From NCBI GenBank assembly GCA_038208115.1, contig JBBQZC010000006.1:3438-67437 (forward strand): a DNA stretch of 64,000 bases. The letters are read 5' to 3'. The notes under the pieces are model-generated. The model was given only the letters and a program-made list of their open reading frames with translations, searched no databases and was not told the origin of the DNA. Source of the DNA: Candidatus Moraniibacteriota bacterium. Lineage in GTDB: Bacteria; Patescibacteriota; Minisyncoccia; Moranbacterales; GCA-2747515. Below, piece after piece: positions 5,501 to 62,762 of this stretch; within the stretch, counting starts at the first letter, position 1, and each line of letters begins with the position of its first letter. Position numbers and translations under genes: made by a program.

Positions 5501-8500
5501 CGGGATTATCAAATGTGGTAGAAATGTCGAGTGGAGGAGAGCATACATGCGCACGACTTTCCGATAACACGATGAGCTGTTGGGGCAGAAACGTCAATGG
5601 ACAACTCGGTGATGGCACAACAACACGACGCACATTACCAACGCTAGTTTTAGGATTATCAAATGTGGTAGAAATGTCGAGTGGAGGAGAGCATACATGC
5701 GCACGACTTTCCGATAACACGATGAGCTGTTGGGGATATAATTATGGGGGGCAAACATCATATCCTTTTGGATTGTATAATGCAACTCCATATGCTGTTG
5801 CGGGTCTATCGACTGTTTCAGAAATTACTGCTGGAGGAGAACATACTTGCGCACGACTTTCCGATAACACGATGAAGTGTTGGGGAAATAATGGAAGAGG
5901 TCAAATCGGTGATAGTACATTTGTTAGTAATGCTGTGCCACAAACATTGTCGAGTCTAACTGCAGTTGCTGAGATATCATCTGGTTATTATTTTACGTGC
6001 GCACGACTTTCCGATAACACGATGCGCTGCTGGGGTGATAATGATAATGGACAATTGCAGCATGATAGATTTAGCTTTCGAGATCTTAAAATGCAAATAG
6101 ACAAAGAAGGTAACCCTATCATTGCGTATGTATATTCGGATATTATGAGGGGTGGTCAGAATATAGGCTTGTCAAAATGGAATGGTAATGCATGGGTATT
6201 ACATCGTTTGAGTGTTCCAGATTATATTTCAGATCTACAATTTGAATTAGGTGAAAATGACACGCCGATACTCGCATGGACTGATGAGTCGGACGTTTTT
6301 GTGACACAATGGAATGAAAATGAAGATGATTGGTTTAATTTGAACGGTGAAGTTGAAGGATTTGAGCAAATTACAGACGGTGGTGAAATAAATGATATAC
6401 AGATACAAATGACATCAAGACAATACCCAATGCTTATATGGAGTCACTGGACGCCACATAGTACGCATTTTACCCAATGGAATGGTGTAAATTGGGTGAG
6501 AGGTGATGATGAGACAGAGGGTAATGACATGATTTCTGATCCTTTGACTACCACAACAATTGATATAGTACTCAATGAAAATGATGAACCGTCGGTAGTA
6601 TGGAGCGAGCAATATGGAGATGTACATTTTTCTATGTTACCTCTCAATATAGAGTCACCTCTAGTAGTTCAATCAACCAAATTAAATGAATCAATTACGG
6701 ATATTGTGAGTGCAAAATTAACTGCTGATGATGATTTGGAAGGTGAATCATATATTGAATATTATCTGTCATCTGATGGTGGCGAAATGTGGAATCACGT
6801 CAATTCTGGTCAAGAATTAATTTTTGCAGAAAAAACGAGTGATGTACGATGGCGCGCAGTTCTTTATAAAGGTTCTATGCCAACGTTGAATTCTGTTCAT
6901 GTAAATTTTTCGACAGAATCAATTACTCCCACATGTGGTGAGGCAGCAAGAACATATTCTATAAATGAGACAGAGTTTTCTGGCGAAAATTATACGCCAA
7001 GTTCGATGAATTTTTCACCTGCATCAATGCTTAATATGGCAGTAAAAACATTTACAAATATTGTACCAGCAATCACGATTGATCCAATAATTACGCCAAC
7101 ATGTGGTGATGCTGCTAAAACATATACGTATGATGAAACTACATTTGCGGGTACCTTATGTGGTGTCGGAACAGAGGATAGTACGCCAGTGTTTCCTGTA
7201 CAAGGTGCCTCAAGCGCATGGAACTGTGTCGGTACGTCAGAGACAGTTGCATGTAATGCGTCGAGAGAAGTAGAGCCTGCATCAGAGGATATTATGTGCG
7301 CATCAGGCACTATCGATATAACACCTTCTTTTCCAGAATTGGGGCAAACAGTTATGTGGCAATGTCAAAATTCAACAGATAATGTGATGTGTAGCGCTAA
7401 TCGTGCAGAAACAATTATTGCGACATGCGGTACAGCGGCAAAGACATATGTATCAACTGCTACGTCATTTTTTGGTGGCTTGTGTACATCAGGTACGATC
7501 GATATAACGCCAGTATTTCCAGAAAAGGGACAAATGGTGAGTTGGCATTGCCAAGGCACGAGCGAAAACAAGATTTGCAGTGCTAATCGTGATGGTGATT
7601 TAGTACCAGAATCAGTGGATCAAACAAAGGAGTGCTCCACGGACTCCACTAAAGATGTGACGAAAAACTCTGTAATTTTACGGGCAACTGTTGATGAGTC
7701 ATATAAAAATGATAATGTGAAATTTAAGATTGATGTGAAGAATGTACAATCTGACGAGAAAGAGACAATCAAAATATCAGAAACGCCATCAGATAATGGA
7801 AAAGTGAATCTATTAATAGATAATCTTTTGGAAGATACGGAATATGAATTCAAAGTGAGCTATGAGGAAAAAGATGAATATCTCTATTGTCCACATTCAA
7901 AAACTGCCAAAACACTTAAAACAGAATTGATTACAGAAAAAGAAAAAAAAGAAGCAGCATGTGGCAATGCGGCAAAAACATATGCTGAAGATGAAATAGA
8001 ATTTTCTGGAGATTTCTGTGCTGAGGGAGCCATTGATGAAAATCCATTATTTCCAGCACAGGGAGCGCAAGTATCTTGGGTATGTGCGAGCGGCGATAGC
8101 ACGAAGGATTGTAGTGCACAAAGAGAGAAAAAAAACATACCAGTGCCAATAGTCAAAGGCGGATCTGATCCAAAACCAGTGTCACCAGAAGAAAAAAAGC
8201 CACAAAAAGAAGCGCTAAAACCAGTAACTCAGGAGCCCATATATCAATCAATTGCAACAGTGGGTATTGCTATGGGAACGATGCTTGCTTTTGCAACAAG
8301 TGCTGTGCCACTTTTTGTAACAGTACCAATGGCTGCAAAAGATTTTTTCATTATGCCATTTATCGGTTTATTGGCACGCAGGCGCAATGAGCAAAACTGG
8401 GGCACAGTATTTGAAAAAAACACTAAACAGCCAATTCCAGGCGTTAAGCTTATGCTTACAGATCAAGGCGGAAAAGAGATAGAAACTACATATTCTGATC

Positions 8501-9141
8501 AGCATGGACGATTTGGATTCCTCACGGCAAACGGCACGTTTATTGTTGAGTCAGAAAAAGCAAAGTATGACACAATTCATACTATACAGAATGATTCGTT
8601 ATACGGAGACGTCTATACAGGAGACGTTATTACAATCGATGAAAACAAAGTGATTGCAATCAATATTGCAATGAGTGCAAAAAATGTTGATTGGACAGAG
8701 TATGCACAAAAGAAAGCATCTGCGTATAAAGGATTCTTTTCTATGACAAAAAAATGGGTTTTTATATTGGTGTTTTATGCGGGGTTTATTGCAACCGCCA
8801 TTATCACATATTATAATCCGTCAACTACCAATTTTATTTTTGTTGCGCTGTATGCGGTATTGTTTGTTTTTGATAACTTTATCAAGAAAAAAAAATATGG
8901 CACAGTAGAAACCGTAGATGACAAACCAGTGCCATTTGCGATTGTTTCTCTTTATGACAAAGAATCGCAGGCAAAGAAAACTTTTGCAGTAACAGATGTA
9001 ATTGGAAGATACTATTTATTGGCAGAAAATGGCAACTATAATCTTAAGATTAAGGGACAGCCAATTGGTGGTCATAACTTCGAAAAACAAGGAGATATCC
9101 ATGTGCGTAATGGACTTGTGCGGAAAGATGTAAAAATTTAA
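2548..9141 (+). CDS. Giant (2197 aa) secreted/membrane-anchored multidomain protein: signal peptide, RCC1-like beta-propeller repeats, Cys-rich EGF-like modules, repeated 'TCG(D/E)AAKTY' Cys modules, C-terminal TM helices and a carboxypeptidase-regulatory-like domain
   Basis: Hydrophobic N-terminus. RCC1-like repeat 'HTCARLSDNTMxCWGxNxxGQLG' occurs x7. 'CGDGTCDFENGENVETCSDDC'-type Cys-rich repeats are present. Hydrophobic segments lie near aa 1900-2000, followed by a 'DQHGRFGF' CarbopepD_reg-like motif. Confidence 0.7.
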   Translation: MRKFFVNFSWRFFILCLFFLLQNTETFAGPIDRTATESLILNEFQVVGIAQGWHADDAAWSYALPFTFNYYGVNYTNIRVSSNGYICMDDSASCDSTSPDLSSSYAGPIISALGRDLRTDSINDIYILSDTNHVVIRWLAYEYGYTSQMNFEMVLYSDGSIKFNYGSGPTLNHSAVVGLSNGAGTYLASTYNGRTNFNNVQTSYWSSSSLRVDAFDPADDAIEVSENTSLQMIFDTAVIANVGNVTILKYDDDSEIQTIPISSPLITGWGTDTLVIDIDPLIRDTEYYVMIDADAIKDGDDNYFSGITNESGWNFHTRLSAPMDVLNVDPVDNAQFVTQNSPLHMTFNADVLAGDGDITIYKSSDDSISQTISIASPLVTGWGTDTLTIDIGDLVLDTNYYVFIDGNAIKNSDNVHFVGFDDNVQWNFHTRPSGVKFSLTDDLDTQDRIDTEITEARWDDDAGAYTLWKPTGAWSHADRSSEGNENIQNSGEYTGYNPQIALDNNANQMVVWAENGVIKFTHWNGENTWTAMDGSEGSEDISSSGMGCGPGVCGDGTCDFENGENVETCSDDCHGENVTCGDDICHANLGEDQYNCWEDCSGGSATCGNELCEINGGENLDNCSVDCMGYCGNGLCESDLDESEYTCSEDCSTSDNCRVASKPQIIGDQSGNPIVAWNGYDNNEGVEDTFARRWDGTKWAGMDGQSQFADQLFEDKVVSEDVDFIMLSDNDGNPTVIAGGTETLLHSAWDGTKWTQKNGGDGYEFLSSFGNFYISAADFKFNRATNNPIIVAENSVSGPNVSQWNGSTWSTMDGTSSSKFLTQSMSMSPDPVELSDFSGVLEISLGDQHACARMNDGTVQCWGHNSFGQLGNGSDVNSKDPVTVLGLSNVVEISAGSYHTCARLSDNTMSCWGRNVNGQLGNNSLTQSNVPVTVSGLSNVVEMSSGGEHTCARLSDNTMRCWGLNNNGQIGDNTLTKRMIPVPVSGLSNVVEMSSGGEHTCARLSDNTMSCWGRNVNGQLGDGTTTRRTLPTLVLGLSNVVEMSSGGEHTCARLSDNTMSCWGYNYGGQTSYPFGLYNATPYAVAGLSTVSEITAGGEHTCARLSDNTMKCWGNNGRGQIGDSTFVSNAVPQTLSSLTAVAEISSGYYFTCARLSDNTMRCWGDNDNGQLQHDRFSFRDLKMQIDKEGNPIIAYVYSDIMRGGQNIGLSKWNGNAWVLHRLSVPDYISDLQFELGENDTPILAWTDESDVFVTQWNENEDDWFNLNGEVEGFEQITDGGEINDIQIQMTSRQYPMLIWSHWTPHSTHFTQWNGVNWVRGDDETEGNDMISDPLTTTTIDIVLNENDEPSVVWSEQYGDVHFSMLPLNIESPLVVQSTKLNESITDIVSAKLTADDDLEGESYIEYYLSSDGGEMWNHVNSGQELIFAEKTSDVRWRAVLYKGSMPTLNSVHVNFSTESITPTCGEAARTYSINETEFSGENYTPSSMNFSPASMLNMAVKTFTNIVPAITIDPIITPTCGDAAKTYTYDETTFAGTLCGVGTEDSTPVFPVQGASSAWNCVGTSETVACNASREVEPASEDIMCASGTIDITPSFPELGQTVMWQCQNSTDNVMCSANRAETIIATCGTAAKTYVSTATSFFGGLCTSGTIDITPVFPEKGQMVSWHCQGTSENKICSANRDGDLVPESVDQTKECSTDSTKDVTKNSVILRATVDESYKNDNVKFKIDVKNVQSDEKETIKISETPSDNGKVNLLIDNLLEDTEYEFKVSYEEKDEYLYCPHSKTAKTLKTELITEKEKKEAACGNAAKTYAEDEIEFSGDFCAEGAIDENPLFPAQGAQVSWVCASGDSTKDCSAQREKKNIPVPIVKGGSDPKPVSPEEKKPQKEALKPVTQEPIYQSIATVGIAMGTMLAFATSAVPLFVTVPMAAKDFFIMPFIGLLARRRNEQNWGTVFEKNTKQPIPGVKLMLTDQGGKEIETTYSDQHGRFGFLTANGTFIVESEKAKYDTIHTIQNDSLYGDVYTGDVITIDENKVIAINIAMSAKNVDWTEYAQKKASAYKGFFSMTKKWVFILVFYAGFIATAIITYYNPSTTNFIFVALYAVLFVFDNFIKKKKYGTVETVDDKPVPFAIVSLYDKESQAKKTFAVTDVIGRYYLLAENGNYNLKIKGQPIGGHNFEKQGDIHVRNGLVRKDVKI
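5080..6060 (+). repeat. Intragenic tandem repeats (about 120-150 nt units, several >95% identical) encoding RCC1-like blades
   Basis: The string 'gcacgactttccgataacacgatg[ac]gctgttgggg' recurs at ~5251, 5401, 5551, 5701, 5851 and 6001. Long identical stretches: 5341-5420 matches 5491-5570, and 5551-5610 matches 5251-5310. Confidence 0.85.
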
Positions 9142-13186: not shown

Positions 13187-13215
13187 TTGACAAAATAATA
13201 AAAATATGCTATAGT
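13187..13215 (+). promoter_or_regulatory. sigma70-type promoter TTGACA-N17-TATAGT
   Basis: 'ttgaca aaataataaaaatatgc tatagt' lies 25 nt upstream of the ORF at 13241. Confidence 0.5.
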
Positions 13216-16468: not shown

Positions 16469-17671
16469 ATGAATAATTTGAAATCATTTACAGCGTTGTT
16501 GCCGAGGCGTAAGACGCGAGTGGTAATGGTCGGAAACATAGGAATCGGTGGTGATGAGCCGATCCGCGTGCAGACCATGACAAATACTGACACTTTAGAT
16601 GTAGAAACGACAGTTGCACAAATCATGCGATGTGTGGATGCCGGATCTGAGTTGGTCCGTATTACCACACCAACAGTTAAGCATGTGCACGCACTAAAAG
16701 AGATTAAAGATATTTTAAAGGAAAAATTTGATTGCGAAGTACCGATTGTTGCAGATATCCATTTTGATAAAGCTGCCGCTTTTGAGGCATTAAAATATGC
16801 AGACAAGATCCGATTAAATCCAGGAAATCTCTTGGATAGTCGTGGTAGCGGTGATATGGTTTTGACAGATGCAGAATATCAGAAAGAGCTTGAGAGAATC
16901 GAAGATGGGCTACAACCGTTTATTATAGAATTACAAAGAACGAAAAAACCGATTCGTATCGGAACGAACTGGGGATCACTCTCAGGTCGCATTCTTGGTA
17001 AGTATGGTAATACATCTTTAGGTCTTGTGGAAAGTGTGATGGAGTATTTGCGTGTATTCAAAAAATATGATTTTCATGAGATTGTAGTAGCAATCAAGGC
17101 ATCTGACCCAATCATTATGATCGAGTCAAATCGATTACTTGCATACAAAATGGATCAAGAAGGCATGGATTATCCAATACATTTGGGCGTGACTGAAGCT
17201 GGTAGTGAAGATGATGGACGAGCCAAATCCACAATTGGAATTGGAACGCTTCTTCTCGAGGGTATTGGTGATACATTACGTGTGTCGCTAACAGAACCAC
17301 CAGAGGATGAAATCCCTGTGTGCTTTACTATTTTGCAAGCAACCAAACGTCGCATCTCCAAAACAGAATTTATCTCATGCCCATCATGTGGGAGAACACT
17401 TTTTGATATTGCAACAGTAACAAAACGGATCAAAGAACGGTTGGGGCATTTGGTGGGTGTTAAAATTGCTGTGATGGGTTGTATCGTCAATGGTCCTGGA
17501 GAAATGGCAGATGCAGATTTCGGTTATGTAGGAGGCGCACCTGGTAAGATCAGTTTGTATTATGGCAAAGAAGTAATCCAAAGAAATTTGCCTGAGGAAG
17601 AAGCTATTGAAGAGCTTATTGCACTTATCAAAGAAAAGGGAAAGTGGATTGATGTGACTCTTAATACATAG
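16469..17671 (+). CDS. ispG: 4-hydroxy-3-methylbut-2-enyl diphosphate synthase IspG (GcpE)
   Basis: 'RIGTNWGSL', the 'CPSCGRT' [4Fe-4S] Cys motif and 'VMGCIVNGPGEMADADFGYVG' are present. Confidence 0.9.
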   Translation: MNNLKSFTALLPRRKTRVVMVGNIGIGGDEPIRVQTMTNTDTLDVETTVAQIMRCVDAGSELVRITTPTVKHVHALKEIKDILKEKFDCEVPIVADIHFDKAAAFEALKYADKIRLNPGNLLDSRGSGDMVLTDAEYQKELERIEDGLQPFIIELQRTKKPIRIGTNWGSLSGRILGKYGNTSLGLVESVMEYLRVFKKYDFHEIVVAIKASDPIIMIESNRLLAYKMDQEGMDYPIHLGVTEAGSEDDGRAKSTIGIGTLLLEGIGDTLRVSLTEPPEDEIPVCFTILQATKRRISKTEFISCPSCGRTLFDIATVTKRIKERLGHLVGVKIAVMGCIVNGPGEMADADFGYVGGAPGKISLYYGKEVIQRNLPEEEAIEELIALIKEKGKWIDVTLNT

Positions 17672-17732
17672 ATATTTAAAATGGATGGTTTAAAATTACT
17701 CATACGTTTATAAAACATATTATTATTTTTTT

Positions 17733-17762
17733 TGATATTATGATATAATGTGTCTATAATAA
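17733..17762 (+). promoter_or_regulatory. sigma70-type promoter TTGATA-N17-TATAAT upstream of 17779
   Basis: 'ttgata ttatgatataatgtgtc tataat'. Confidence 0.4.
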
Positions 17763-17778
17763 AAATTAATAAAAAAAA

Positions 17779-18405
17779 ATGAAACACAACATTCTCATCG
17801 CGACTCTCGGTGTTCTTGCGTTGGCTGTCATTGGTCTTATAGCGTATATTGCACTCAAGCCAGATCGTGTTGTAGCGCCGGTGGCGATGCAGCAGAAGAC
17901 GGTGACACAAAAAAGTGCTGGACAATCAGTTGATGTAAAAGATGAAAATAATAAAATACAAGTGCAATCTGAAAAACAAGTTGCATCGATAGATGCACAA
18001 AAATATTTAAGCATAAAGGAGTTTGGTATTCAAGTTCCTGTAAGTGTAGTGATGTACGATGATTTAAGCGTAAAAATAATTAAAGACGAAAATTCTGATT
18101 GTGTAAACATTTACTCTAAAAAATTAAGCAATATTCACCAATATTGTTCCAAGGATGGTTTTTATCATGTGTGTAAGCTTGTTGGCAAAACAACAGATAA
18201 AGAATATGCAGACTGGCCAGGAGGTGCTCCAGTCGGAATGCAGTTTAATGGATTTTTCATTACAAGTTCTCGTAGTAGCGATTATTGTGTTGTGGGTGAT
18301 AATGCAGGTGAAACTAACATACAAGAAAAAACCAATATGCAATTGCAAGATAATATTAGTGCAGAATTTGGAAAAGCGCTAGTAAGTGCTGAGCCAATCA
18401 ATTAG
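17779..18405 (+). CDS. N-terminally anchored exported hypothetical protein (member of MKHN(I/L)LIA.. signal-anchor family)
   Basis: N-terminus 'MKHNILIATLGVLALAVIGLIAYIALKPDRVVAPVAMQQK' parallels the N-termini of ORFs 20030 and 20608. Confidence 0.55.
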   Translation: MKHNILIATLGVLALAVIGLIAYIALKPDRVVAPVAMQQKTVTQKSAGQSVDVKDENNKIQVQSEKQVASIDAQKYLSIKEFGIQVPVSVVMYDDLSVKIIKDENSDCVNIYSKKLSNIHQYCSKDGFYHVCKLVGKTTDKEYADWPGGAPVGMQFNGFFITSSRSSDYCVVGDNAGETNIQEKTNMQLQDNISAEFGKALVSAEPIN

Positions 18406-18545
18406 ATAATGAAGTTTTACGTGCATTTTTTGAGCAAATTTGAAAGTGAACATGAATAAGAGGTAAGAGATGATGGATGAAGTATGAAAGGTGCACTGTC
18501 TGATAGTTTCATATTTGAGTAAATAATATTTTTTCAAAAGAGAAA

Positions 18546-18572
18546 AACGCCGTAAAAACGGTGTTTTTCTAT
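18546..18572 (+). terminator. Putative rho-independent terminator
   Basis: 'aacgccgtaaaaacggtgtttttc' hairpin followed by a T-run. Confidence 0.4.
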
Positions 18573-18583
18573 GTATTAAGATA

Positions 18584-18612
18584 TTGACATATATGCATAA
18601 ATATGCTATAAT
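18584..18612 (+). promoter_or_regulatory. Perfect-consensus sigma70 promoter TTGACA-N17-TATAAT
   Basis: 'ttgaca tatatgcataaatatgc tataat'. Confidence 0.6.
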
Positions 18613-18668
18613 ATAAAATATTGTTCGTTAATTCCATTTATTTAAAAAGCCTCAAGGAGGGCAGAGTC

Positions 18669-19058
18669 ATGAAAAGCATGAATTATGTGTTTTGTATGGT
18701 TATATTTTTAAGCGTGGCATTCGATATCGCTCAAGTGTTTGCCGAAGACAAGTTAATTGTTGGGGATACTCTAACACCATACAAAGTTGAGGCTGACAAT
18801 CAAGTCGTGTGCGGTTCACAAGTTACAATGCACTTTGATGCACGCAAATCAGTCAAGGAATTTAGCACGGCGATGATGATGGTTTGTCTCTCAAAGGAAG
18901 ATGTCTTGAGACTTTTAAATGAGCAGGGATATATTCCTATCAAAGATGTTGAAGAAATGACCGGATATCACTTTGCTTCAGGCAAAGGACCAATCACAGA
19001 AAAATTGTTCAAAGATGTTGCAAGTGGAAGAGATGTATTTTCACATCTTTTCAAATGA
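18669..19058 (+). CDS. Small secreted protein (paralog A). Start moved to the ATG 8 nt after AAGGAGG; the track start is 18621
   Basis: RBS 'aaggagg' at 18654-18660. Signal-peptide-like 'MKSMNYVFCMVIFLSVAFDIAQVFA'. Paralogous to ORF 19370 ('MVCLSKEDVLRLLNEQG' vs 'IMCRSKDDVMQLLAEQDG'; 'ITEKLFKDVASGRDVF' vs 'MTEKLFSEYLSGRERY'). Confidence 0.6.
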   Translation: MKSMNYVFCMVIFLSVAFDIAQVFAEDKLIVGDTLTPYKVEADNQVVCGSQVTMHFDARKSVKEFSTAMMMVCLSKEDVLRLLNEQGYIPIKDVEEMTGYHFASGKGPITEKLFKDVASGRDVFSHLFK

Positions 19059-19065
19059 TTCTAAG

Positions 19066-19109
19066 ACCGACCTATTGCATTTACATATGCGATAGGTCGG
19101 TATTTTTTA
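19066..19109 (+). terminator. Rho-independent terminator
   Basis: 10-bp stem 'accgacctat/ataggtcggt' followed by 'attttttat'. Confidence 0.6.
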
Positions 19110-19229
19110 TAGAAATTCTATTTCCATTTTATTTGCACTGGCCATCATATCGAGATTTCATTTTAGGTTGAAGGTGTGATCAATATTTATTACTTTTTAC
19201 GACAATATTTGATATAAAAGTGATTTTTA

Positions 19230-19262
19230 TTGTTACCTTTTCGCGTCTTGGTCGTTATATAT
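19230..19262 (+). promoter_or_regulatory. ECF-sigma-type promoter motif copy 1: TTGTTAC-N16-CGTTATATAT
   Basis: Exact motif. Identical -35/-10 elements with a 16-nt spacer recur at 19907 and 21666. It lies ~75 nt upstream of the RBS of ORF 19370. Confidence 0.6.
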
Positions 19263-19369
19263 AGCACATGGTTCACATTTGAGATTAGACTAGTTATTTT
19301 TAATATGCAACGATGGATTGACATATTTAGGCAGTTTATGAATTTTCCCAAAAAACGGAGGTAGGAGAA

Positions 19370-19807
19370 ATGGTGAAAAAGATCATGTTATGTGTAGTAT
19401 TGGCAATTTCCTTTTCGGCTGATTGTTTTGCTTCTCGCCATATCACATCTGATGATATCAAAATAATCTCACCGTGTGTTGTGAGATTTGATGACATCCA
19501 AATTTGTGGCAGAGGAAATGTCGTATTGGAATTTTCTGTTGATCCGAAGATTATTAACGAAACAGAAAATTCTCGTGAGGCAAGTCTGATTATGTGTCGT
19601 TCAAAAGATGACGTGATGCAATTGTTAGCAGAGCAAGATGGATCATTATCACACAATGTGACAATTACTCATCAAATTGAGGATATTAAAATGCTGTATA
19701 TCGTTCGCAATGATACGCATATTTATGCACGACCGATGACAGAAAAGCTCTTTAGTGAATATCTTTCTGGCAGAGAAAGATATTATAAATGGTTTGGTAA
19801 GAAGTAG
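19370..19807 (+). CDS. Small secreted protein (paralog B)
   Basis: RBS 'ggagg' 8 nt upstream. Signal peptide 'MVKKIMLCVVLAISFSADCFA'. Homologous to ORF 18669. Confidence 0.65.
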   Translation: MVKKIMLCVVLAISFSADCFASRHITSDDIKIISPCVVRFDDIQICGRGNVVLEFSVDPKIINETENSREASLIMCRSKDDVMQLLAEQDGSLSHNVTITHQIEDIKMLYIVRNDTHIYARPMTEKLFSEYLSGRERYYKWFGKK

Positions 19808-19818
19808 AGTCAAATAAT

Positions 19819-19861
19819 TAACCGATCACATACATAACGCGATGTGATCGGTTTTCTTTTT
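19819..19861 (+). terminator. Rho-independent terminator
   Basis: 'aaccgatcacat..atgtgatcggtt' stem followed by 'ttcttttt'. Confidence 0.6.
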
Positions 19862-19906
19862 CAGAAGAAAAAAGTTGTTTGTGGTATAATAAGTGTATTA
19901 AATGTT

Positions 19907-19939
19907 TTGTTACCTTATGACTTCTCGTTCGTTATATAT
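19907..19939 (+). promoter_or_regulatory. ECF-sigma-type promoter motif copy 2: TTGTTAC-N16-CGTTATATAT (preceded at 19882-19890 by an extended -10 TGgTATAAT)
   Basis: Exact motif with the same spacing. It lies ~90 nt upstream of ORF 20030. Confidence 0.6.
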
Positions 19940-20029
19940 AAGTTACACAAAATGTATTACAAGTAATCATTAACAATGTAAAAATACAAATATAAAAAAT
20001 GTTATTCAAAATTTTTATTAATTAAAAGA

Positions 20030-20596
20030 ATGATTATGAAGCACAATTTACTTATAGCAATCCTCCTTATCATCGGCGCAATTCTCATCAGTGCTGTGGT
20101 CTATACAGCGATGAAAACACGTGACATTGCTGCGCCAGAAATGACGAAAGTCAGCATAATGAAGAAAAATAATTCAATGAATGTAAACAATGAGATTAAC
20201 TCAAATGGAGAAGTTGCATATAAAATATATAAAAATGAAAAATATGGATTTGAAGTCACGATACCTAGTGATTGGGTAGTTGGTGATCCAGAGGTTGTAG
20301 ATAGTGCTATCGATGACAAGGGACAGCTAAATATGTATATGATTAGTTTTTTAGCAAAAAGCAAAGGTGAAATGATCGATGTAATGGATTTTATTATTAC
20401 TGCAAAAGACGATGTAAAAAGATGTGATGAGATCATGCTGTGTAATGTTGGTGGAGAGATGGCACAAGGTAATGGATATTATTATGGAATTACACATGGC
20501 TTTCAAGATCAACAATATGTGGATGAATATATAACAGGAACAAATATTAACGAGGAAGGAGTAAAAATACAAGAGTCATTTAAGTTAATCAAATAA
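20030..20596 (+). CDS. N-terminally anchored exported hypothetical protein (family member 2)
   Basis: 'MKHNLLIAILLIIGAILISAVVYTAMKTRDIAAPEMTK' signal anchor. The first 116 nt are identical to ORF 20608. Confidence 0.6.
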   Translation: MIMKHNLLIAILLIIGAILISAVVYTAMKTRDIAAPEMTKVSIMKKNNSMNVNNEINSNGEVAYKIYKNEKYGFEVTIPSDWVVGDPEVVDSAIDDKGQLNMYMISFLAKSKGEMIDVMDFIITAKDDVKRCDEIMLCNVGGEMAQGNGYYYGITHGFQDQQYVDEYITGTNINEEGVKIQESFKLIK

Positions 20597-20607
20597 ATTA
20601 TTGAATT

Positions 20608-21546
20608 ATGAAGCACAATTTACTTATAGCAATCCTCCTTATCATCGGCGCAATTCTCATCAGTGCTGTGGTCTATACAGCGATGAAAACACGTGACATT
20701 GCTGCGCCAGAAATGACGAAAGCTGGGGTGTCTGTACGAAAAAATAAATCGGCAAAAGACGAAATGAAAACGGAGGGAAGTACAGTTTCGTCAGGGTATA
20801 AAAATGTACGTGTGAGTGATGGTATAGTGAATTTTTCATTTGAAGTGCCAGAAAAATGGCTTACAGAGACACGACATTCGGGAGAAAAACAATTGACCAT
20901 AGATGAGATGCGTGAGTTTCTCGCAACAAATTTTGATGGTGACATCAAGGGAGGGGAGGTTTGTCAGGATTGGGAGGAAGAAGATGCAGATACAGGAAAG
21001 ATAACAATAAGAAAGCATTGTGGCTTATTATCATCTGATTACACTGATTTGGCATGGAATGACATTAAGGCGATGAGTGATAAAGAGGTGAAAGATAATT
21101 TTTTTCGAAAAGAGGATGATAAGGATGTTTTTCCAAACGCATCTGTTACTGCAAATGATTTCATTTGGTATACGGATATAAGTTGGGCACAGATTGATTT
21201 TCAGATTGTTGATGAATCTGCTGAATGGGTTGTCGCTAAAGTAAGGAAAGATGATAAAAAATGGTGTGATGAAAATGGTGCGGATATGGCTGGCTGTGGC
21301 GATAATATGTCAAAATGGGCAAAAGCAATAATTGATGGTCAAAATGTTGATTTTGAAACATATGCTACTGACAAAGATGAAAATGGAAATGAATCAATTA
21401 CTAAAGGTGGTTCAGGGGGAAAGATGTATTATATCTCGATACCAAATTCTACAAAATCGTTGAAAATTTGGAAACAAGCTAAAGGCGAACCACAATTTGA
21501 AAAAGATTTTGAGCATCTTATTCAAACATTTAAATTCACTAAATAA
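20608..21546 (+). CDS. N-terminally anchored exported hypothetical protein (family member 3)
   Basis: Same 38-aa N-terminus as 20030. The C-terminal domain is unrelated. Confidence 0.6.
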   Translation: MKHNLLIAILLIIGAILISAVVYTAMKTRDIAAPEMTKAGVSVRKNKSAKDEMKTEGSTVSSGYKNVRVSDGIVNFSFEVPEKWLTETRHSGEKQLTIDEMREFLATNFDGDIKGGEVCQDWEEEDADTGKITIRKHCGLLSSDYTDLAWNDIKAMSDKEVKDNFFRKEDDKDVFPNASVTANDFIWYTDISWAQIDFQIVDESAEWVVAKVRKDDKKWCDENGADMAGCGDNMSKWAKAIIDGQNVDFETYATDKDENGNESITKGGSGGKMYYISIPNSTKSLKIWKQAKGEPQFEKDFEHLIQTFKFTK

Positions 21547-21555
21547 TCTATTTGC

Positions 21556-21592
21556 AAAAAAATCCTGTTACCTATAAATGACGGGATTTTTT
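21556..21592 (+). terminator. Rho-independent terminator
   Basis: 'aaatcctgt..acgggattt' stem followed by 'tttggtg'. Confidence 0.5.
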
Positions 21593-21665
21593 GGTGTTTG
21601 TGATATAATAGGTATATAAAAAATAAATACATAAGAAAAAAATCATCATATATTATAAGAATATT

Positions 21666-21698
21666 TTGTTACTTTTTCGCTTGTGATTCGTTATATAT
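21666..21698 (+). promoter_or_regulatory. ECF-sigma-type promoter motif copy 3, directly upstream of the sigma-factor gene (probably autoregulatory)
   Basis: Exact TTGTTAC-N16-CGTTATATAT. The -10 ends 2 nt before the first in-frame ATG (21700). The functional start is therefore probably the ATG at 21736, which is preceded by a GGGGGAAG RBS. Confidence 0.6.
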
Positions 21699-21735
21699 TA
21701 TGGATACAGTAAATAATAATGTGGGGGAAGATCGT

Positions 21736-22317
21736 ATGGATACATCAGTACAGCGGGATCATCTTGTTGAAGAAAGTATGTGGATCGAGCATTGTCAGCA
21801 GGGACAGATGGAGGATTTCGGACAGATCTACGACACATATGTACGTCGGATCTACGACTTTATCTATTTCAAGACACATCATAAGGAAACGGCAGAAGAC
21901 CTCTGTAGCAAAGTGTTTATGAAATGCCTTGAAAATATCCAGAGCTATAATCGTACACAAGGCACATTTAATTCATGGATTTATCGCATTGCCACAAATA
22001 CGGTGATTGATCATTATCGGACACAGAAAAGTCACAGTGGCATAGAAGATGCATGGGATATCGCAAGTGGAGATGATCTCATGCGAGATGTAGAAAATCA
22101 AGAGAAATTTCTCGCAGTTGAAAAGTACATGCGAGACCTCAAATCAGAACAGCGCGATATCATCATGATGCGTATATGGAGTGGCATGAGCTATCAAGAG
22201 ATTGCGGATATTATCGGTAAGAGTGAAGATAATTGTAAAATGATTTTTTCACGAGCAATCGGCAAAATGCGTAAAGATGTGATTATTGGGTTTCTCGCGT
22301 ATTTCTTTATGAACTAA
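21736..22317 (+). CDS. ECF-type (group 4) RNA polymerase sigma-70 family factor
   Basis: Region 2: 'ETAEDLCSKVFMKCLENIQSY..FNSWIYRIATNTVIDHYR'. Region 4: 'EQRDIIMMRIWSGMSYQEIADIIGKSEDNCKMIFSRAIGKMR'. The track ORF 21700..22317 includes 12 extra N-terminal codons that overlap the promoter. Confidence 0.8.
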   Translation: MDTSVQRDHLVEESMWIEHCQQGQMEDFGQIYDTYVRRIYDFIYFKTHHKETAEDLCSKVFMKCLENIQSYNRTQGTFNSWIYRIATNTVIDHYRTQKSHSGIEDAWDIASGDDLMRDVENQEKFLAVEKYMRDLKSEQRDIIMMRIWSGMSYQEIADIIGKSEDNCKMIFSRAIGKMRKDVIIGFLAYFFMN

Positions 22318-22359
22318 TGATCATTTGTAAAATATATTAATTTTCTAATTAGCGACAAT

Positions 22360-25300
22360 ATGAATCAGTTGATTGAGGAGATCATTCACGATCTCTATGC
22401 ACTGGATAAAGATCTAATCACTTATGATGCGCATGTGAGAAAAATTGTAGAACAAATTATCGCTACAAAACCAGATACGCAATTTGATGATGCATTTAAA
22501 TTGCAATTGCGCAGCGAGATCATGCAGAAGATTGCAGAATTAAAAGAAAATGAAAAAACTGAAGTAGAAGAAGCACCTATTGAAAAAGAATATTTTTTGA
22601 AAAATTTTTTCTCATCACGATGGGTTTTTGTTGCACCAGTTTTTGCTGTTGTGATGGTCATGATCGTTTTGGGATATGCACAATATAATAAAAATGGTGG
22701 TATTTATATAACAAAACAAAATGTACAGTTTGCCTTATCACCAACACAAGCAGACATTGTAGGCGTTGCCCCAGAAACGCATTTTATACTTCGCACATCC
22801 AAGGATGTGTCACATACAACAATAAAAAAGGTGATTGCATTTGATCCTGAAATCGAATTTACAGTAAAGAAAAAAGAGCAATCCGTTTCCTTTATTCCAT
22901 CGGCACGTGCTGCGGAAAATGTGAACGATGGAGATTTGTCATACCAATATGAGATTATTCCTACGGAAAAATTGACGGAAGATCAGATATATAAGATTAC
23001 CGTGAATAATGATAAAATCGCGGATCGTGATTATCAATGGGCTTTTCAGGTAAAAGCACCATTTGGTGTTGTATCTTCAATCCCAGGAGATAAAGGGGTT
23101 GGTGTGCCTGTGGAGTCTGGTATTGAAATACAATTTAATCGTCAATTGTCACAGGATATTTCTCATAACTTTTCAATTACTCCTTCTATAAAAGGTGAAT
23201 TTGACGTGCGTGCAGATCGATTGTATTTTCATCCAACGGAATTATTAGTACCAAAAACAATATACACTGTCACAGTCGAAAAAGGTTCTATCGCAAAGGA
23301 TAATGGGGATGTGATGGAAAATGACTATGCTTTTGCGTTTGAAACAGGTTCAAACGATTCGGACACCTCTTTTTATGATTATACATTTGAGCTAGGTGAA
23401 TCGACAGTTTCTGTTACGCCAGACATGCATCCAATGGTCAGTATTTTGTATGATACTAAAGGAACATTTGATGTATCTTTGTATAAATTGGAAAACATGG
23501 AGGATTATATGCATCGCGTCACACTTCAAAATAATTGGGATCTCATGTGGACAGATTATCATGATCAAAATGACCTATCTGCATATAAACCAGCGGAAGA
23601 CCATAAGATTCTATCGATTCAGGGAGAGTTGATTGACGATATGTATTTTGACATACCTGAAAATTTGGCAAATGGATATTATTTCTTTACGATCACAAAA
23701 AATGATATCACGCGAAGCGGATGGGTCGTAAGCTCGGACATTGCACATTATTATTCTCTATCAGAGGATAATGGCATGATGTGGATATATGATTTCATGA
23801 ATAAAAAACCGATTCAAAATGCACGCATTACACTTCGCAATGATGAACAAAATGTTGATGCACTTGGACAATCAAATAATGATGGTCTTGCTATGTTCAC
23901 AGTGCCTAAGAGCTTGGAGGAATCTGCAGATGAAACGAAACCGCAATTTTTTGTAATCACTTCTGAAGAAGGAAAATCAGTCGCAATTGGTGCAGATTCA
24001 GTATACTACTCAAAAGGTAGTGCAGAGAACTATTATTGGACATATTTATCTACAGATAAAAATAAATATCATAAAACTGACAAAATCAATTATTGGGGCA
24101 TTATTAAGTCACGGAATAGTGATCGTATCAATAGTGCCGTCACAGTCGGATTGTATCAAGGATGTCCAAATAATGTATACAGTACGGATAGTGATAGTGA
24201 ACCCATTATTGTGCAAGAACTTTCAGTGTCGGATTTTGACACGATTAGTGGAGAAATGTCATTGGAAAATGTGCCTGCATCGTCGTATTGTCTCGCTGTT
24301 GTGGATCACACAAAGAAAGAAACAATCACCACACAATGGATTTCTGTAGAATCTTATCAAAAACCTGCATATCAGATCACAGTTACACCATCCACGCCAT
24401 CGATCTATGCTGATGATAAAATGACATTTGATGTACGCGCTTCATTTTATGATGGAACGCCTGTGTCCTTACAAAAATTAAAGTATTCTCTTATAGGAAT
24501 TGAATCATTAGATGGAGAGCTCATATTAGATGAGTCTGGAAACGGAAAATTTGAATATCAACCAAAATATGACGATTCATATATATATTATCCAGTGGAA
24601 ACGACTATTACGTTTTCTCCTGCGGTCGCTGAAGAAGGCGACATGTATGGTCGTGCACATGTGAATGTATTTGGTCCAAACATATATGTATCATCTGAAG
24701 AAAAAAAGATTGCATCTGATACGTATGAAGTGCGTGTCCATGTAAATGAAGTAGTTTTGCAAAATCATTCGCAGGATGAAGAAACGGCAATGGACTCGTA
24801 CATTGGCGATGGCGTAAAAGATCATTCTGTAAATGCGAAGTTGATCGAACTGACATATAGAAAGAAAGAAGTGGGTGAATATTATGATTATATTACCAAG
24901 ACGCAGAAGAAAGAATACGAATATACACAAGAAGAAAAAACGATTGAAAAATTTTCTGGAAAAACAAATAATGATGGTGATTGGGTCTTTGAGAAAAGTC
25001 TTGCAGTAAATCCAGATATTTCGTATAAGATCTCATTTGAGAGTAATGACCAGGATGGTCATAAAAGTGTATCAGATACGTATGTTTATCCGAGCATAAC
25101 AGAAAATGATCATCTTAAATTGGAAATGACGGGGGGTAAGCAGTCTGCGGGAATAAACTACTTTGGAGATTATCAAGATTTCTCTTATGGAGATACGGTC
25201 AAGCTTTCTCTCATGACATCTGATGAAGATCGTGCGCTCGATAATAAAATGTTGATTTATCGATATCAAAACAACATTATGCATGCAAATGTTGTCAATG

Positions 25301-27627
25301 GTAACACATATGAAGAAACATTTACAAAAGATCTTGCGCCTTCTGTAAGTTATCGCGCTGTGATCCTGACGCAATATGGATTTCAAGAAACATATGATGC
25401 GGGTGCTTCTGTTTTTCAAGATGATCACGCATTGACGATTGAAATTATTCCATCGCAAGAAAAGTATAAACCAGGTGATAAAGCTGATGTGGCAGTACAT
25501 ATTGTTGATGTGCACGGTAATCCTGTGGTCGCAGAAGTGAATATTTCTGTTGTGGATGAAGCGCTTTTTCAGAATAATTATGATTGGAATACTAAAATCT
25601 TGCAAAAATTGTATCAAAAAATCTTCACGTATTTGACAACAGATTATACACAATACGCATCTCGTTCAAAAGGTGATGCTGGCGGAGGCGGAGGTGGGGA
25701 TGATCGCTCAAGCTTTGTGGATGTTGCACATTTTGAAAATGTCGTTACTAACAAAGATGGAAATGCCAATTTTACATTTGACGTGCCGGATAATTTGACG
25801 GGGTGGCGTGTTATGGCACGTGCATTTGATACACAAAACATGTCTGCAGGACAAAAAAGTATTATAGTGCCTACATCCTTACCGTTTTTTGTAGATGTGA
25901 ATATTGGCGATCTTTATTTATCTGGGGATGAGCCACAAATGAAAATTCGCTTTTTTGGTGAACAATATGATAAAGAACAACCCGTCACATACTCTGTAAT
26001 AAGTGAGGGGCTTCATATTGATGAAACGAAAACAACAAATAATCCGATAAATGATTTTTTACTAGGAAAAATGCAAACTGGAGAATATCAGATCAAAATC
26101 ACGGCCACGCAGGGAGATAAAAATGATTCACTCATTCGACAGATTCATGTAGCTAATAGTGCATCTCAAAAACGAGTGACAAAAGTTTATCCAATTACTT
26201 CTGATTTACATAACATAAAAGGTAATAGCGATGGTTACACAGATATTGTATTTACTGATATGGGTAAGGCAAAGTTTCATAATGCATTACTGCAGAATGC
26301 TGGCGTGACTGGTGTCAGACTTGATCAAATTGTTGCATCACATTTCGCGAAGGAATTACTCACAGTGCAGTATGAACATAGTGATTTCACAGGAGAATTA
26401 TCTTTGCGGAAGTACGAAAGTGGCGATGATGCAGTTGGATTTGGATTGCAATTGTTGCCATATGGAGGTCTCGATATTGAGCTATCTGCAAAAGTTGCTG
26501 ATATTGCGAAGCAAGATGTCAGTCAAGATGATCTGATATCATATTTTGAGGAGAACATGTATAACGTAAATGCGGATATTCATCGAACGTCAAAAGCGCT
26601 TTATGGACTAGCTTCCTTAGATGAAAACGTATTGTATAAAGTAGATGTTGTGAAATCATTTGAGGCGGACCTCACGATTGAGGATAAAATCTATCTCGCG
26701 CTCGCAGAATATAAAAATGGTGACGTGGAAGGTGCAAGACGCTATTATGAAAATGAAATCAAGAAGCACATCATAATAGATAATGATCAATTTGCATGGA
26801 TTGAAAGTGTGAGTGACGGATTAGAAAAAGAAAAATTGACAGCAACTCTCGGCATCCTCGTATCATATATTGATGATCGACCAATGGCTGAAAAAGTGTG
26901 GCACTATATGGAAACACATGCACCGCAGCGTGACGTGATCGACCTTGAACAAGTGATGATGATTGCATCGGAAATTCAGCATATATCGCAAAAAGAAGCA
27001 TCATGTACAGTATCTACAAATAGTCGCGAGTTTTTTGTCGATCTCAGTGATGATAAAGAAAAGACTTTACATGTATCACAAGATGAATTAGCGTCGCTTC
27101 GCTTTACTGATATCAAAGGAGATATCGTGCTTATTGCATCACATGATGATCTTGTGCAAGAGGACGATTCACAAAAAAATAATCCAGCAGTATCTTTGAC
27201 AAGGTCATACGAAGTGGACGGGAAAAGGACAAATACGTTTAAAGAAGGTGATATAGTCGAGGTGCGTCTTACTCCTAAATTTGAGTCTAACGCAGAGAAT
27301 GGTGGATATCAAATTGTAGATGTGTTACCAAGTGGTCTGAAACCGGCGACCGCAGTATTTGATCCAATGACTATATGGAATGATCCAGAAATCATACAGA
27401 ATGACTGTGATCGTATATGGTATGTGGATCGATTGGATGATAATCGTGTGACATTTAGTTTCGACAGTAACTATGTAAAAGAACATGCGTGTGCAGATTT
27501 TTCGATAAGATATTATGCTCGTGTGGCATCGAAGGGTGTATTTGGTGTCGATCATGCAATGATGCAATCGACACAAAACAGGCAAAATTATTTTATCACA
27601 AATCGTGATCAAATCACAATTAAATAA
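22360..27627 (+). CDS. Membrane-anchored alpha-2-macroglobulin/MG-domain-like giant protein (1755 aa) with ~95-aa cytoplasmic N-terminal domain; candidate anti-sigma/sensor partner of the upstream ECF sigma
   Basis: Single TM helix 'WVFVAPVFAVVMVMIVLGYA' at aa ~97-117. A2M-like motifs 'NVVTNKDGNANFTFDVPDNLTGWRVMARAF' and 'AEVNISVVDEALFQ' are present. No CxEQ thioester motif. It starts 42 nt after the sigma gene. Confidence 0.6.
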   Translation: MNQLIEEIIHDLYALDKDLITYDAHVRKIVEQIIATKPDTQFDDAFKLQLRSEIMQKIAELKENEKTEVEEAPIEKEYFLKNFFSSRWVFVAPVFAVVMVMIVLGYAQYNKNGGIYITKQNVQFALSPTQADIVGVAPETHFILRTSKDVSHTTIKKVIAFDPEIEFTVKKKEQSVSFIPSARAAENVNDGDLSYQYEIIPTEKLTEDQIYKITVNNDKIADRDYQWAFQVKAPFGVVSSIPGDKGVGVPVESGIEIQFNRQLSQDISHNFSITPSIKGEFDVRADRLYFHPTELLVPKTIYTVTVEKGSIAKDNGDVMENDYAFAFETGSNDSDTSFYDYTFELGESTVSVTPDMHPMVSILYDTKGTFDVSLYKLENMEDYMHRVTLQNNWDLMWTDYHDQNDLSAYKPAEDHKILSIQGELIDDMYFDIPENLANGYYFFTITKNDITRSGWVVSSDIAHYYSLSEDNGMMWIYDFMNKKPIQNARITLRNDEQNVDALGQSNNDGLAMFTVPKSLEESADETKPQFFVITSEEGKSVAIGADSVYYSKGSAENYYWTYLSTDKNKYHKTDKINYWGIIKSRNSDRINSAVTVGLYQGCPNNVYSTDSDSEPIIVQELSVSDFDTISGEMSLENVPASSYCLAVVDHTKKETITTQWISVESYQKPAYQITVTPSTPSIYADDKMTFDVRASFYDGTPVSLQKLKYSLIGIESLDGELILDESGNGKFEYQPKYDDSYIYYPVETTITFSPAVAEEGDMYGRAHVNVFGPNIYVSSEEKKIASDTYEVRVHVNEVVLQNHSQDEETAMDSYIGDGVKDHSVNAKLIELTYRKKEVGEYYDYITKTQKKEYEYTQEEKTIEKFSGKTNNDGDWVFEKSLAVNPDISYKISFESNDQDGHKSVSDTYVYPSITENDHLKLEMTGGKQSAGINYFGDYQDFSYGDTVKLSLMTSDEDRALDNKMLIYRYQNNIMHANVVNGNTYEETFTKDLAPSVSYRAVILTQYGFQETYDAGASVFQDDHALTIEIIPSQEKYKPGDKADVAVHIVDVHGNPVVAEVNISVVDEALFQNNYDWNTKILQKLYQKIFTYLTTDYTQYASRSKGDAGGGGGGDDRSSFVDVAHFENVVTNKDGNANFTFDVPDNLTGWRVMARAFDTQNMSAGQKSIIVPTSLPFFVDVNIGDLYLSGDEPQMKIRFFGEQYDKEQPVTYSVISEGLHIDETKTTNNPINDFLLGKMQTGEYQIKITATQGDKNDSLIRQIHVANSASQKRVTKVYPITSDLHNIKGNSDGYTDIVFTDMGKAKFHNALLQNAGVTGVRLDQIVASHFAKELLTVQYEHSDFTGELSLRKYESGDDAVGFGLQLLPYGGLDIELSAKVADIAKQDVSQDDLISYFEENMYNVNADIHRTSKALYGLASLDENVLYKVDVVKSFEADLTIEDKIYLALAEYKNGDVEGARRYYENEIKKHIIIDNDQFAWIESVSDGLEKEKLTATLGILVSYIDDRPMAEKVWHYMETHAPQRDVIDLEQVMMIASEIQHISQKEASCTVSTNSREFFVDLSDDKEKTLHVSQDELASLRFTDIKGDIVLIASHDDLVQEDDSQKNNPAVSLTRSYEVDGKRTNTFKEGDIVEVRLTPKFESNAENGGYQIVDVLPSGLKPATAVFDPMTIWNDPEIIQNDCDRIWYVDRLDDNRVTFSFDSNYVKEHACADFSIRYYARVASKGVFGVDHAMMQSTQNRQNYFITNRDQITIK

Positions 27628-27629
27628 AA

Positions 27630-27661
27630 GAAAAAAGCACTGTATATCGCAGTGCTTTTAT
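27630..27661. terminator. Bidirectional rho-independent terminator between convergent genes
   Basis: 'aaaagcactg tatatcg cagtgctttt' with an A-run upstream and a T-run downstream. Confidence 0.6.
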
Positions 27662-62733: not shown

Positions 62734-62762
62734 AGTTGACATTTGCCAATAAATGTGCTATA
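62734..62762 (+). promoter_or_regulatory. Perfect-consensus sigma70 promoter TTGACA-N17-TATAAT
   Basis: 'ttgaca tttgccaataaatgtgc tataat'. RBS AAGGAG lies at 62808-62813. Confidence 0.6.

Follow-up and report, generated by a model that had tools for sequence, protein, structure and literature searches.

The question raised by this locus is whether three copies of one short sequence, each standing in front of a gene, are the promoters of a sigma factor that is encoded just after the last of them. The copies lie in a stretch of 64,000 nucleotides (nt) from Candidatus Moraniibacteriota bacterium (assembly GCA_038208115.1, contig JBBQZC010000006.1, positions 3,438 to 67,437 of the forward strand), which is the whole DNA analysed and is called the window below. 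A preliminary description of this DNA had presented the sequence, TTGTTAC-N16-CGTTATATAT, as an extracytoplasmic function (ECF) type promoter that defines a small local regulon including the sigma factor gene. Our analysis leads to the same reading: the copies are very probably ECF-type promoters of the neighbouring sigma factor, where both the start points and the identity of the sigma that reads them are predicted from the sequence. The elements concerned are the following.

19230-19262, + strand: candidate ECF promoter, copy 1 (-35 box TTGTTAC at 19230-19236, -10 box CGTTATATAT at 19253-19262)
19907-19939, + strand: candidate ECF promoter, copy 2 (-35 box at 19907-19913, -10 box at 19930-19939)
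21666-21698, + strand: candidate ECF promoter, copy 3, putatively autoregulatory (-35 box at 21666-21672, -10 box at 21689-21698)
21736-22317, + strand: ECF sigma factor, 193 amino acids (aa)

Three exact copies of a bipartite motif

A pattern scan of the 64 kb retrieved the exact motif three times, always on the + strand and with 0 mismatches, the boxes being identical and the spacer 16 nt long in every copy, as first described. For the motif with up to three mismatches the chance expectation is 0.36 matches, and three matches were reached in none of 100 shuffled sequences. The box CGTTATATAT on its own occurs three times in the 64 kb, all at the motif copies, and a scan with the core GTTAC-N16-CGTTA, in which spacers of 14-19 were allowed, detected no further credible copy in the window. 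Each of the three copies is intergenic, with an intrinsic terminator on its 5' side and a + strand gene on its 3' side.

A repeat search delimits the block common to the copies to 39 nt, with 74-79% identity, and the flanks are unrelated. The earlier claim that the boxes are conserved and no block has been duplicated holds up, but the accompanying statement that the spacers share no sequence does not, since the spacers of copies 1 and 3 are identical at 10 of 16 positions and a T-rich stretch, also kept in orthologs, follows the -35 box in all three copies. The agreement of these two spacers and the presence in the window of an exact 118-nt repeat could be taken to mean that the copies are recent local duplicates of a single 39-nt block, for which no function would be required. 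This seems to us extremely improbable: outside the boxes and the T-tract identity is at background, and in dozens of distant genomes these two boxes recur, separated by other spacers, at a matching place relative to the sigma gene.

Conservation upstream of orthologous sigma genes

The comparison was made with 80 orthologous sigma loci of Patescibacteria, all from different species and with 42-68% identity. The core GT[TCA]AC-N16/17-CGT is present on the sense strand within 270 nt 5' of the sigma gene in 61 of the 80 loci, where about 1.2 would be expected, and on the antisense strand in 3/80; the rest of the loci gives an expectation of 0.015 per 270 nt. Several of the loci scored as negative contain one-letter variants of the motif. 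When 5-mers were counted without any prior pattern, GTTAC was the most enriched one upstream of sigma (61 loci vs 10.3 expected, p = 3.5e-38), followed by TGTTA, TTACT, TTCGT and CGTTA. In the orthologs, 46 cases show a distance of 16 from GTTAC to CGT and 9 a distance of 17, other values being nearly absent. The 50 sites with N16 yield the family consensus T-GTTAC-yTTT...T-CGT-[A/T]-n-TA, in which the -10 core has A as its fourth base in 25 sites, T in 25 and C in none; the window has T. A position weight matrix (PWM) derived from the orthologs gave 91 hits when the loci were scanned, vs 5 in shuffled sequences, nearly all of them on the sense strand and preceding the sigma gene, an anti-sigma-like gene, or genes for N-terminally anchored or secreted proteins. 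With the same matrix, copies 1, 2 and 3 of the window score 30.1, 29.4 and 31.8 bits, near the top of the score range.

A motif conserved upstream of orthologs is an accepted signature of autoregulation and has been used as such in systematic studies of ECF sigma factors, which require near-consensus promoters and about half of which autoregulate (PMC7776599). Retention of the motif ahead of 61 of the 80 sigma genes, with a spacing of 16-17, strongly supports its role as autoregulatory promoter of the orthologous sigma family, and speaks for the autoregulation that had been suggested for the window.

The same alignment is relevant to a different explanation, in which the motif is a direct-repeat operator for a DNA-binding regulator, as are the sites of LytTR proteins and response regulators. 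All three window copies do contain a direct repeat, GTTAC/GTTAT, with 22 nt from start to start, about two helical turns. In the orthologs, however, the second box reads CGT[A/T]nTA, with CGTA in half of the sites, so that it is not the second GTTA that is conserved but the CGT and the 16-nt spacing. Moreover, the sigma gene is the only regulator gene conserved at the loci, and the orientation of the motif with respect to the downstream gene is constant. We regard an operator of this kind as very unlikely.

Comparison with known ECF promoters

The promoter of Tt-RpoE1 from Thermoanaerobacter tengcongensis, tGTTAC-N16-CGTC, was defined by band shifts, scanning mutagenesis, primer extension and in vitro transcription (Liu et al. 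2012, PLoS One, PMC3397946). In this promoter CGTC lies at -13 to -10 and the A/T-rich TATA downstream of it is dispensable, while every one of G, T, TA and C in the -35 box contributes, and the D of the DxxR motif within the sigma's region 2.4 reads the G at -12 (PMC3397946). Tt-RpoE1 is an activator of the gene that encodes it and is bound by the first 39 residues of a membrane protein encoded downstream (PMC3397946). Compared with this published description, the window resembles Tt-RpoE1 in the GTTAC letters of the -35 box, the N16 spacer, the A/T-rich TATA stretch after the -10 box, the DxxR motif and the predicted autoregulation, and resembles the Tt-RpoE1/Tt-TolB pair in having, directly 3' of sigma, the gene of a single-pass membrane protein with a short cytoplasmic N-terminus and a large outer domain. 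Unlike Tt-RpoE1, however, the -10 core is CGTT in the window and CGT[A/T] in 50 of 50 ortholog sites, so that the GTC of that promoter is absent; in Tt-RpoE1, a change of C to T at position -10 nearly abolishes binding (PMC3397946). Numbering the window sites as in Tt-RpoE1, with CGTC at -13 to -10, places the predicted starts at about 19266 for copy 1, at about 19943 (+/-2) for copy 2, and at about 21702 (a G after a T), or alternatively 21700, for copy 3.

Promoters of the SigW, SigX and SigM type in B. subtilis (TGAAAC-N16-CGTA and similar) have a spacer of 16-17 and a T-tract after the -35 box; these sigma factors autoregulate, and sigM and sigX have a housekeeping promoter as well. The window motif is built in the same way, being bipartite, with a -35 box terminated by C, a T-tract, a CGT core in the -10 box and a suggested extra housekeeping promoter, and is unlike the SigW type in that its -35 box is GTTAC and does not contain AAC. 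The fixed spacer of 16-17 nt and the CGT of the -10 box by which ECF promoters are recognized are found in all three window copies (N16 in each), but the AAC core is not, as TTGTTAC has TAC in its place. The architecture put forward at the outset, an 'AAC' -35 and a 'CGT' -10 separated by 16 nt, was thus right about the spacer and the -10 box, and needs correction to GTTAC in the -35 box. The assignment to the ECF class itself is supported by the adjacent sigma gene, whose product contains sigma2 and sigma4 only, by the motif in 61/80 loci and by the precedent of Tt-RpoE1 (PMC3397946). A TGTTAC found in a paper on transcription start sites of C. difficile is unrelated to ECF promoters and was discarded.

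The sigma factor

The only domains detected with Pfam in the 193 residues of the sigma factor are Sigma70_r2 (31-98) and Sigma70_r4_2 (127-177), and the length lies within the range of about 170-220 aa of the ECF sigma factors (group 4), which consist of sigma2 and sigma4 alone. The protein scores 97.7 bits with the NCBIfam model TIGR02937 (sigma70-ECF; cut-off 42.9), and carries the DxxR of region 2.4 as D92-H-Y-R95, inside NTVIDHYRTQ. It falls below the cut-off of every named NCBIfam equivalog, including those of SigW, SigX, SigM, SigY and SigZ. The best NCBIfam model is that of the BldN family (TIGR02952), with 130 bits, and since this is far under the cut-off of 206 the window sigma is not a member of that family. 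The best relative of solved structure is 6dxo_A (E = 1.6e-20), which we take to be the Streptomyces BldN-RsbN complex; unlike sigma-BldN, the window sigma has no N-terminal pro-sequence. Homologs are found in Patescibacteria, also known as the candidate phyla radiation (CPR), among them Moraniibacteriota, Falkowbacteria and Parcubacteria. The main text of the ECF classification 2.0 mentions neither CPR phyla nor GTTAC.

The -10 box of copy 3 ends at 21698, two nucleotides before an in-frame ATG at 21700, as had been pointed out. The start codon of sigma is most likely the ATG at 21736, because the predicted transcription start of copy 3 falls inside the ATG at 21700, a Shine-Dalgarno-like GGGGGAAGA at 21723-21731 precedes the ATG at 21736, and the N-terminus counted from 21736 has the same length as in the orthologs. 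The closest relative (locus L002) also has an in-frame ATG directly after the motif, and a leaderless start at 21700 is a possible alternative. At the other end of the protein, the tail beyond region 4.2 (22276-22314, residues ~181-193) is short, hydrophobic and conserved (DVIIGFLAYFFMN; family consensus LAxLLxFF), and is too short for a membrane helix.

Housekeeping promoters in the window

The following elements of the housekeeping type are found in the neighbourhood of the motif copies.

18584-18612, + strand: perfect sigma-70 promoter TTGACA-N17-TATAAT with upstream TG, ahead of paralog A (18669-19058), a small secreted protein gene; included for comparison and lying outside the ECF regulon
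19882-19890, + strand: extended -10 element TGGTATAAT, 17 nt 5' of ECF copy 2
21601-21609, + strand: extended -10 element TGATATAAT, 57 nt 5' of ECF copy 3

A second perfect TTGACA-N17-TATAAT site is located at 62736, and sites with one mismatch at 13187 and 17732. Among the ordinary promoters named in the preliminary description, the one at 18584 is therefore perfect and does place paralog A under a sigma-70 consensus promoter, but that at 13187 contains a mismatch and the third begins at 62736, not 62734. The contrast between such sites and the TTGTTAC motif, on which a distinct promoter class had been proposed, holds.

Could the motif copies be unusual housekeeping promoters, with TTGTTA as -35 and TATATA or TATAT as -10? 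TTGTTA shares 4 of its 6 letters with TTGACA, and its -10 box would be rich in A and T. Yet TTGTTA and the TATA-like hexamer are separated by 19-20 nt, outside the range of 16-18; none of the three copies appears in the + strand sigma-70 scan; the real promoters of the window are either near-perfect TTGACA-N17-TATAAT or the extended -10 element TGNTATAAT; and the letters conserved in the orthologs are GTTAC and CGT and not a TATAAT hexamer. We find this explanation highly improbable.

The element TGNTATAAT occurs at 16 sites in the window vs 6 expected. In addition to the two listed above, a near match, TGATATAAA, lies at ~19211-19219, some 10 nt 5' of the -35 box of copy 1. The extended -10 elements near the copies sit directly 3' of terminators. 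From this layout, the transcription units of copies 2 and 3 probably have tandem housekeeping and ECF promoters, and the sigma operon probably has its basal promoter in TGATATAAT. The small local regulon that had been postulated is supported for the units of the window, with the qualifications that the view is one of 64 kb and that the units of copies 2 and 3 are probably served by two promoters and not purely by the ECF one.

Genes and terminators around the motif copies

The genes behind the motif copies and the terminators that delimit them are listed below.

19066-19101: intrinsic terminator ahead of copy 1
19370-19807, + strand: paralog B, small secreted protein of 145 aa with a signal peptide and 5 Cys, putative target of copy 1
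19820-19853, + strand: intrinsic terminator 3' of paralog B, with UUUUCUUUUU behind a 12-bp stem
20036-20596, + strand: exported protein 1, N-terminally anchored and PsbP-like, 186 aa (alternative start 20030)
20608-21546, + strand: exported protein 2, N-terminally anchored, 312 aa, C-terminus ...TFKFTK
21557-21592, + strand: intrinsic terminator at the end of the anchored-protein operon
22360-27627, + strand: putative membrane anti-sigma factor, 1,755 aa, beginning 42 nt after sigma
27633-27659, no strand assigned: hairpin, a palindrome between an A-run and a T-run, probable end of the sigma/anti-sigma operon

The predicted start of copy 1 would leave a leader of ~104 nt before paralog B. An alignment of this protein with paralog A covers 137 aa at 25% identity (38.9 bits), and the two are true paralogs, though distant ones; paralog B has no match among the families of Pfam and NCBIfam. 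The hairpin at 19820-19853, which carries a U-run, has a folding energy of -19 kcal/mol (z = -4.6). Given that only 11 nt separate them, the genes of exported proteins 1 and 2 form one operon. The exact 118-nt direct repeat of the window belongs to these genes (20033-20150 and 20605-20722) and covers the first 38 codons, the start codon among them, and 3 upstream bases; it encodes the membrane anchor of both proteins, after which the genes diverge completely. No Shine-Dalgarno sequence is visible at either gene. Exported protein 1 matches Pfam PsbP_2 with E = 1.7e-5 and 25.4 bits, just below the cut-off of 27. A further N-terminally anchored protein, of 208 aa (17779-18405), has an N-terminus 28-29% identical to those of the two ECF-driven anchored proteins and is preceded by the site at 17732, a near-consensus sigma-70 promoter (TTGATA-N17-TATAAT). 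The secreted and the anchored type of protein thus each seem to occur in a housekeeping and a stress-induced version.

To look for leader RNAs in the 5' untranslated regions of ~100 nt, 17000-23000 was compared with Rfam; the only hit was a chance miRNA match on a terminator hairpin. The hairpin at 27633-27659 lies between convergent genes, the A2M-like one described below and one on the minus strand; the scan listed it on the minus strand and its sequence is symmetric. It is likely to be a bidirectional terminator. The other genes of the window (uvrA, dxs, ispG, leuA, rpoB) are those of an ordinary chromosome. Three giant probable surface proteins are also encoded, none with an ECF motif ahead of it.

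60-2351: FG-GAP repeats and a Peptidase_S74 chaperone domain
2548-9141: 2,197 aa, RCC1-repeat/Big_5
36632-40903: 1,423 aa, Big_13/DUF5122

The membrane protein encoded after sigma

The 42-nt gap between sigma and the next gene contains neither a motif nor a terminator, which indicates that the two genes are co-transcribed. The 1,755-aa product consists of a cytoplasmic three-helix N-domain (~1-67), a transmembrane (TM) helix (~83-105) and an ectodomain of ~1,650 aa, in which Pfam detects Big_5 (233-329), bMG3 (459-535, weak), A2M_BRD (939-1071) and A2M (1126-1196). The MG domains, bait region and A2M domain of the bacterial alpha-2-macroglobulins (A2M), such as E. coli YfhM/ECAM, are all represented, and the N-terminal membrane anchoring is another point of likeness. 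Unlike them, the protein lacks the CxEQ thioester motif (it has only five Cys), and its ectodomain is fused to a cytoplasmic N-domain that mostly carries other ectodomains.

In 78 of 81 loci, a hidden Markov model (HMM) of the N-domain, with the consensus ILxDLYxLDPxLKxHExEL...KPDTKFDxxFxxxLR, finds exactly one open reading frame (ORF), which lies directly 3' of sigma; the remaining three loci end at a contig edge. The TM helix begins at about residue 60-90 across the loci. A search of the full library with the N-domain returned 189 cluster representatives; among the best 150 of these the domain is always N-terminal, and the proteins are mostly of 480-570 aa, with a few of ~1,630-1,810 aa. The ectodomain differs by locus, and can be an unannotated domain of ~400 aa, VWA, a beta-propeller or A2M-like. 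The AlphaFold model of the N-domain consists of three helices, with a pLDDT of ~85 over residues 1-60. Against PDB sequences the N-domain profile gave coiled-coil noise only and did not match RsbN, a membrane anti-sigma factor of Streptomyces without the classical zinc-binding anti-sigma domain. A word-indexed protein search with the N-terminus alone or with a profile of 43 sequences found two short fragments only.

In one of the loci (L039) the ORF after sigma contains, at residues 1110-1238, an insert of the Hint/intein type (PT-HINT E = 3e-13, Vint, Intein_splicing). It is placed at a Gly-rich segment of the A2M-like protein, where the window protein has GGGGGG, between the bait-region and A2M domains.

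A membrane anti-sigma pair is recognized by a gene adjacent to and co-oriented with sigma that encodes a cytoplasmic N-domain, one TM helix and an outer domain, and this is the arrangement found here. On these anatomical grounds the product of the gene at 22360 is likely to be a membrane anti-sigma factor, and the sigma-linked gene family looks like an unannotated type of anti-sigma with interchangeable sensor domains. Unlike Tt-TolB, the window protein has a conserved N-domain of ~67 aa rather than 39 residues and an ectodomain that is A2M-like rather than TolB-like. The searched literature contains no report of an A2M-type anti-sigma factor.

Putative regulon members in relatives and metagenomes

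In at least 17 loci the motif also precedes the gene downstream of sigma. In seven of these this second motif overlaps the 3' end of sigma and the ATG of the anti-sigma-like gene follows the 33-nt motif by 1-4 nt (PWM scan; L006 6504, L022 6512, L025 6559, L028 5624, L043 6530, L049 6530 and L064 2745), which suggests leaderless or nearly leaderless mRNAs and fits the start point predicted from the sequence. The other genes preceded by PWM hits encode small proteins with an N-terminal anchor or a signal peptide. Locus L004 has four copies of the motif in 2 kb, ahead of sigma, of a 188-aa N-anchored protein (1147-1713), of a 63-aa ORF whose N-terminus resembles that of a lipoprotein, and of the large downstream gene. 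The 188-aa protein and the window protein at 20036 both give a sub-threshold match to PsbP_2 (E ~2e-5), and a C-terminal TFKFTK is common to the 188-aa protein, the window protein at 20608 and a protein of L002 (685-1269). The PsbP_2 matches and the shared C-terminus point to an anchored PsbP-like protein as a recurring local member of the regulon. BLASTP of the window target proteins against the motif-preceded proteins of other loci gave no cross-locus match. Two further motif-preceded genes are that of a DUF4349 protein in L074 and, after a motif at 4458 of L068, a 438-aa N-anchored ORF with a chagasin-type (I42) peptidase-inhibitor domain (E = 7e-27).

A scan of metagenomes for the exact motif (17 specified bases) was evaluated for 80 of 96 stretches. 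The first downstream ORF is an ECF sigma in 21 of the 80 loci; some of these sigmas belong to the CPR type, the motif there having a T-rich spacer, and others to a second, different-looking type, with genes for 157-185 aa, A-rich motif spacers and contigs of higher G+C (L083, L089, L090, L092, L150, L117, L145, L149, L114, L121 and L127). In about 15 more loci the proteins encoded after the motif have hydrophobic segments at the N-terminus; the remainder look like chance matches. Since the exact motif precedes the second type of sigma as well, it is not restricted to the CPR sigma family.

This last result means that more than one lineage can use the motif, and it bears on the possibility that the window sites are read by a paralogous ECF sigma encoded elsewhere, the neighbouring sigma being merely one of its targets. 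The limitation of our view to 64 kb is also in its favour. We nevertheless think it quite unlikely, because the motif follows this sigma family in 61 of 80 loci over many lineages of Patescibacteria, a pattern accepted as a signature of autoregulation (PMC7776599), and the ORFs of the window that were examined showed no second sigma gene.

A proposed regulatory circuit

We propose that RNA polymerase with the sigma encoded at 21736-22317 would read all three motif copies. Copy 1 would drive paralog B, copy 2 the two-gene operon of N-anchored, PsbP-like surface proteins, and copy 3 sigma together with the 1,755-aa membrane protein, which would establish a positive feedback loop. In the resting state the three-helix N-domain of the membrane protein would hold sigma inactive. 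Until induction, the sigma/anti-sigma pair would be provided by basal expression from the housekeeping extended -10 promoters 5' of copies 2 and 3. Once the A2M-like ectodomain senses a signal, sigma would be released and would switch on all three units.

Several points weigh against this proposal. The part of the genome in view is 64 kb, and a paralogous ECF sigma or additional regulon members may exist elsewhere. The -10 specificity is not that of Tt-RpoE1, the sole experimentally defined promoter of the GTTAC type in the searched literature. Some of the expression of the units of copies 2 and 3 may be independent of the ECF sigma, in view of the extended -10 elements near them. Finally, the N-domain has no Pfam family and no sequence match in the PDB, and its predicted fold gives generic helical matches only.

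The chagasin-type target in L068, together with a window ectodomain that has a bait region and no thioester, hints circumstantially at a protease theme. One could imagine a module widespread in Patescibacteria, with an undescribed anti-sigma domain, in which cleavage of the A2M 'bait' by a foreign protease would lead to destruction of the anti-sigma and turn on surface-protective proteins; this is a speculative scheme, and we consider it doubtful.

Systems in which an autoregulated ECF sigma is combined with a membrane anti-sigma and a small envelope regulon are well known, and for the promoter type there is an experimental precedent. Three elements are new: the CPR host group, for which the searched literature contained nothing relevant on ECF sigma or anti-sigma factors (the search covered CPR, Patescibacteria and Saccharibacteria), the CGT[A/T] variant of the -10 box, and the unannotated anti-sigma-like N-domain combined with an A2M-like sensor. 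For the window itself, the outcome is a clean and testable regulatory annotation, in which three transcription units are defined, each with its predicted start, together with the most likely start codon of sigma. Beyond it, the promoter matrix TGTTAC-yTTT-N12-CGT[A/T]nTA is valid across many Patescibacteria, whose genomes are tiny and for which hardly any regulation is known, and could show what is turned on in these episymbiont-like cells when the envelope is under stress.

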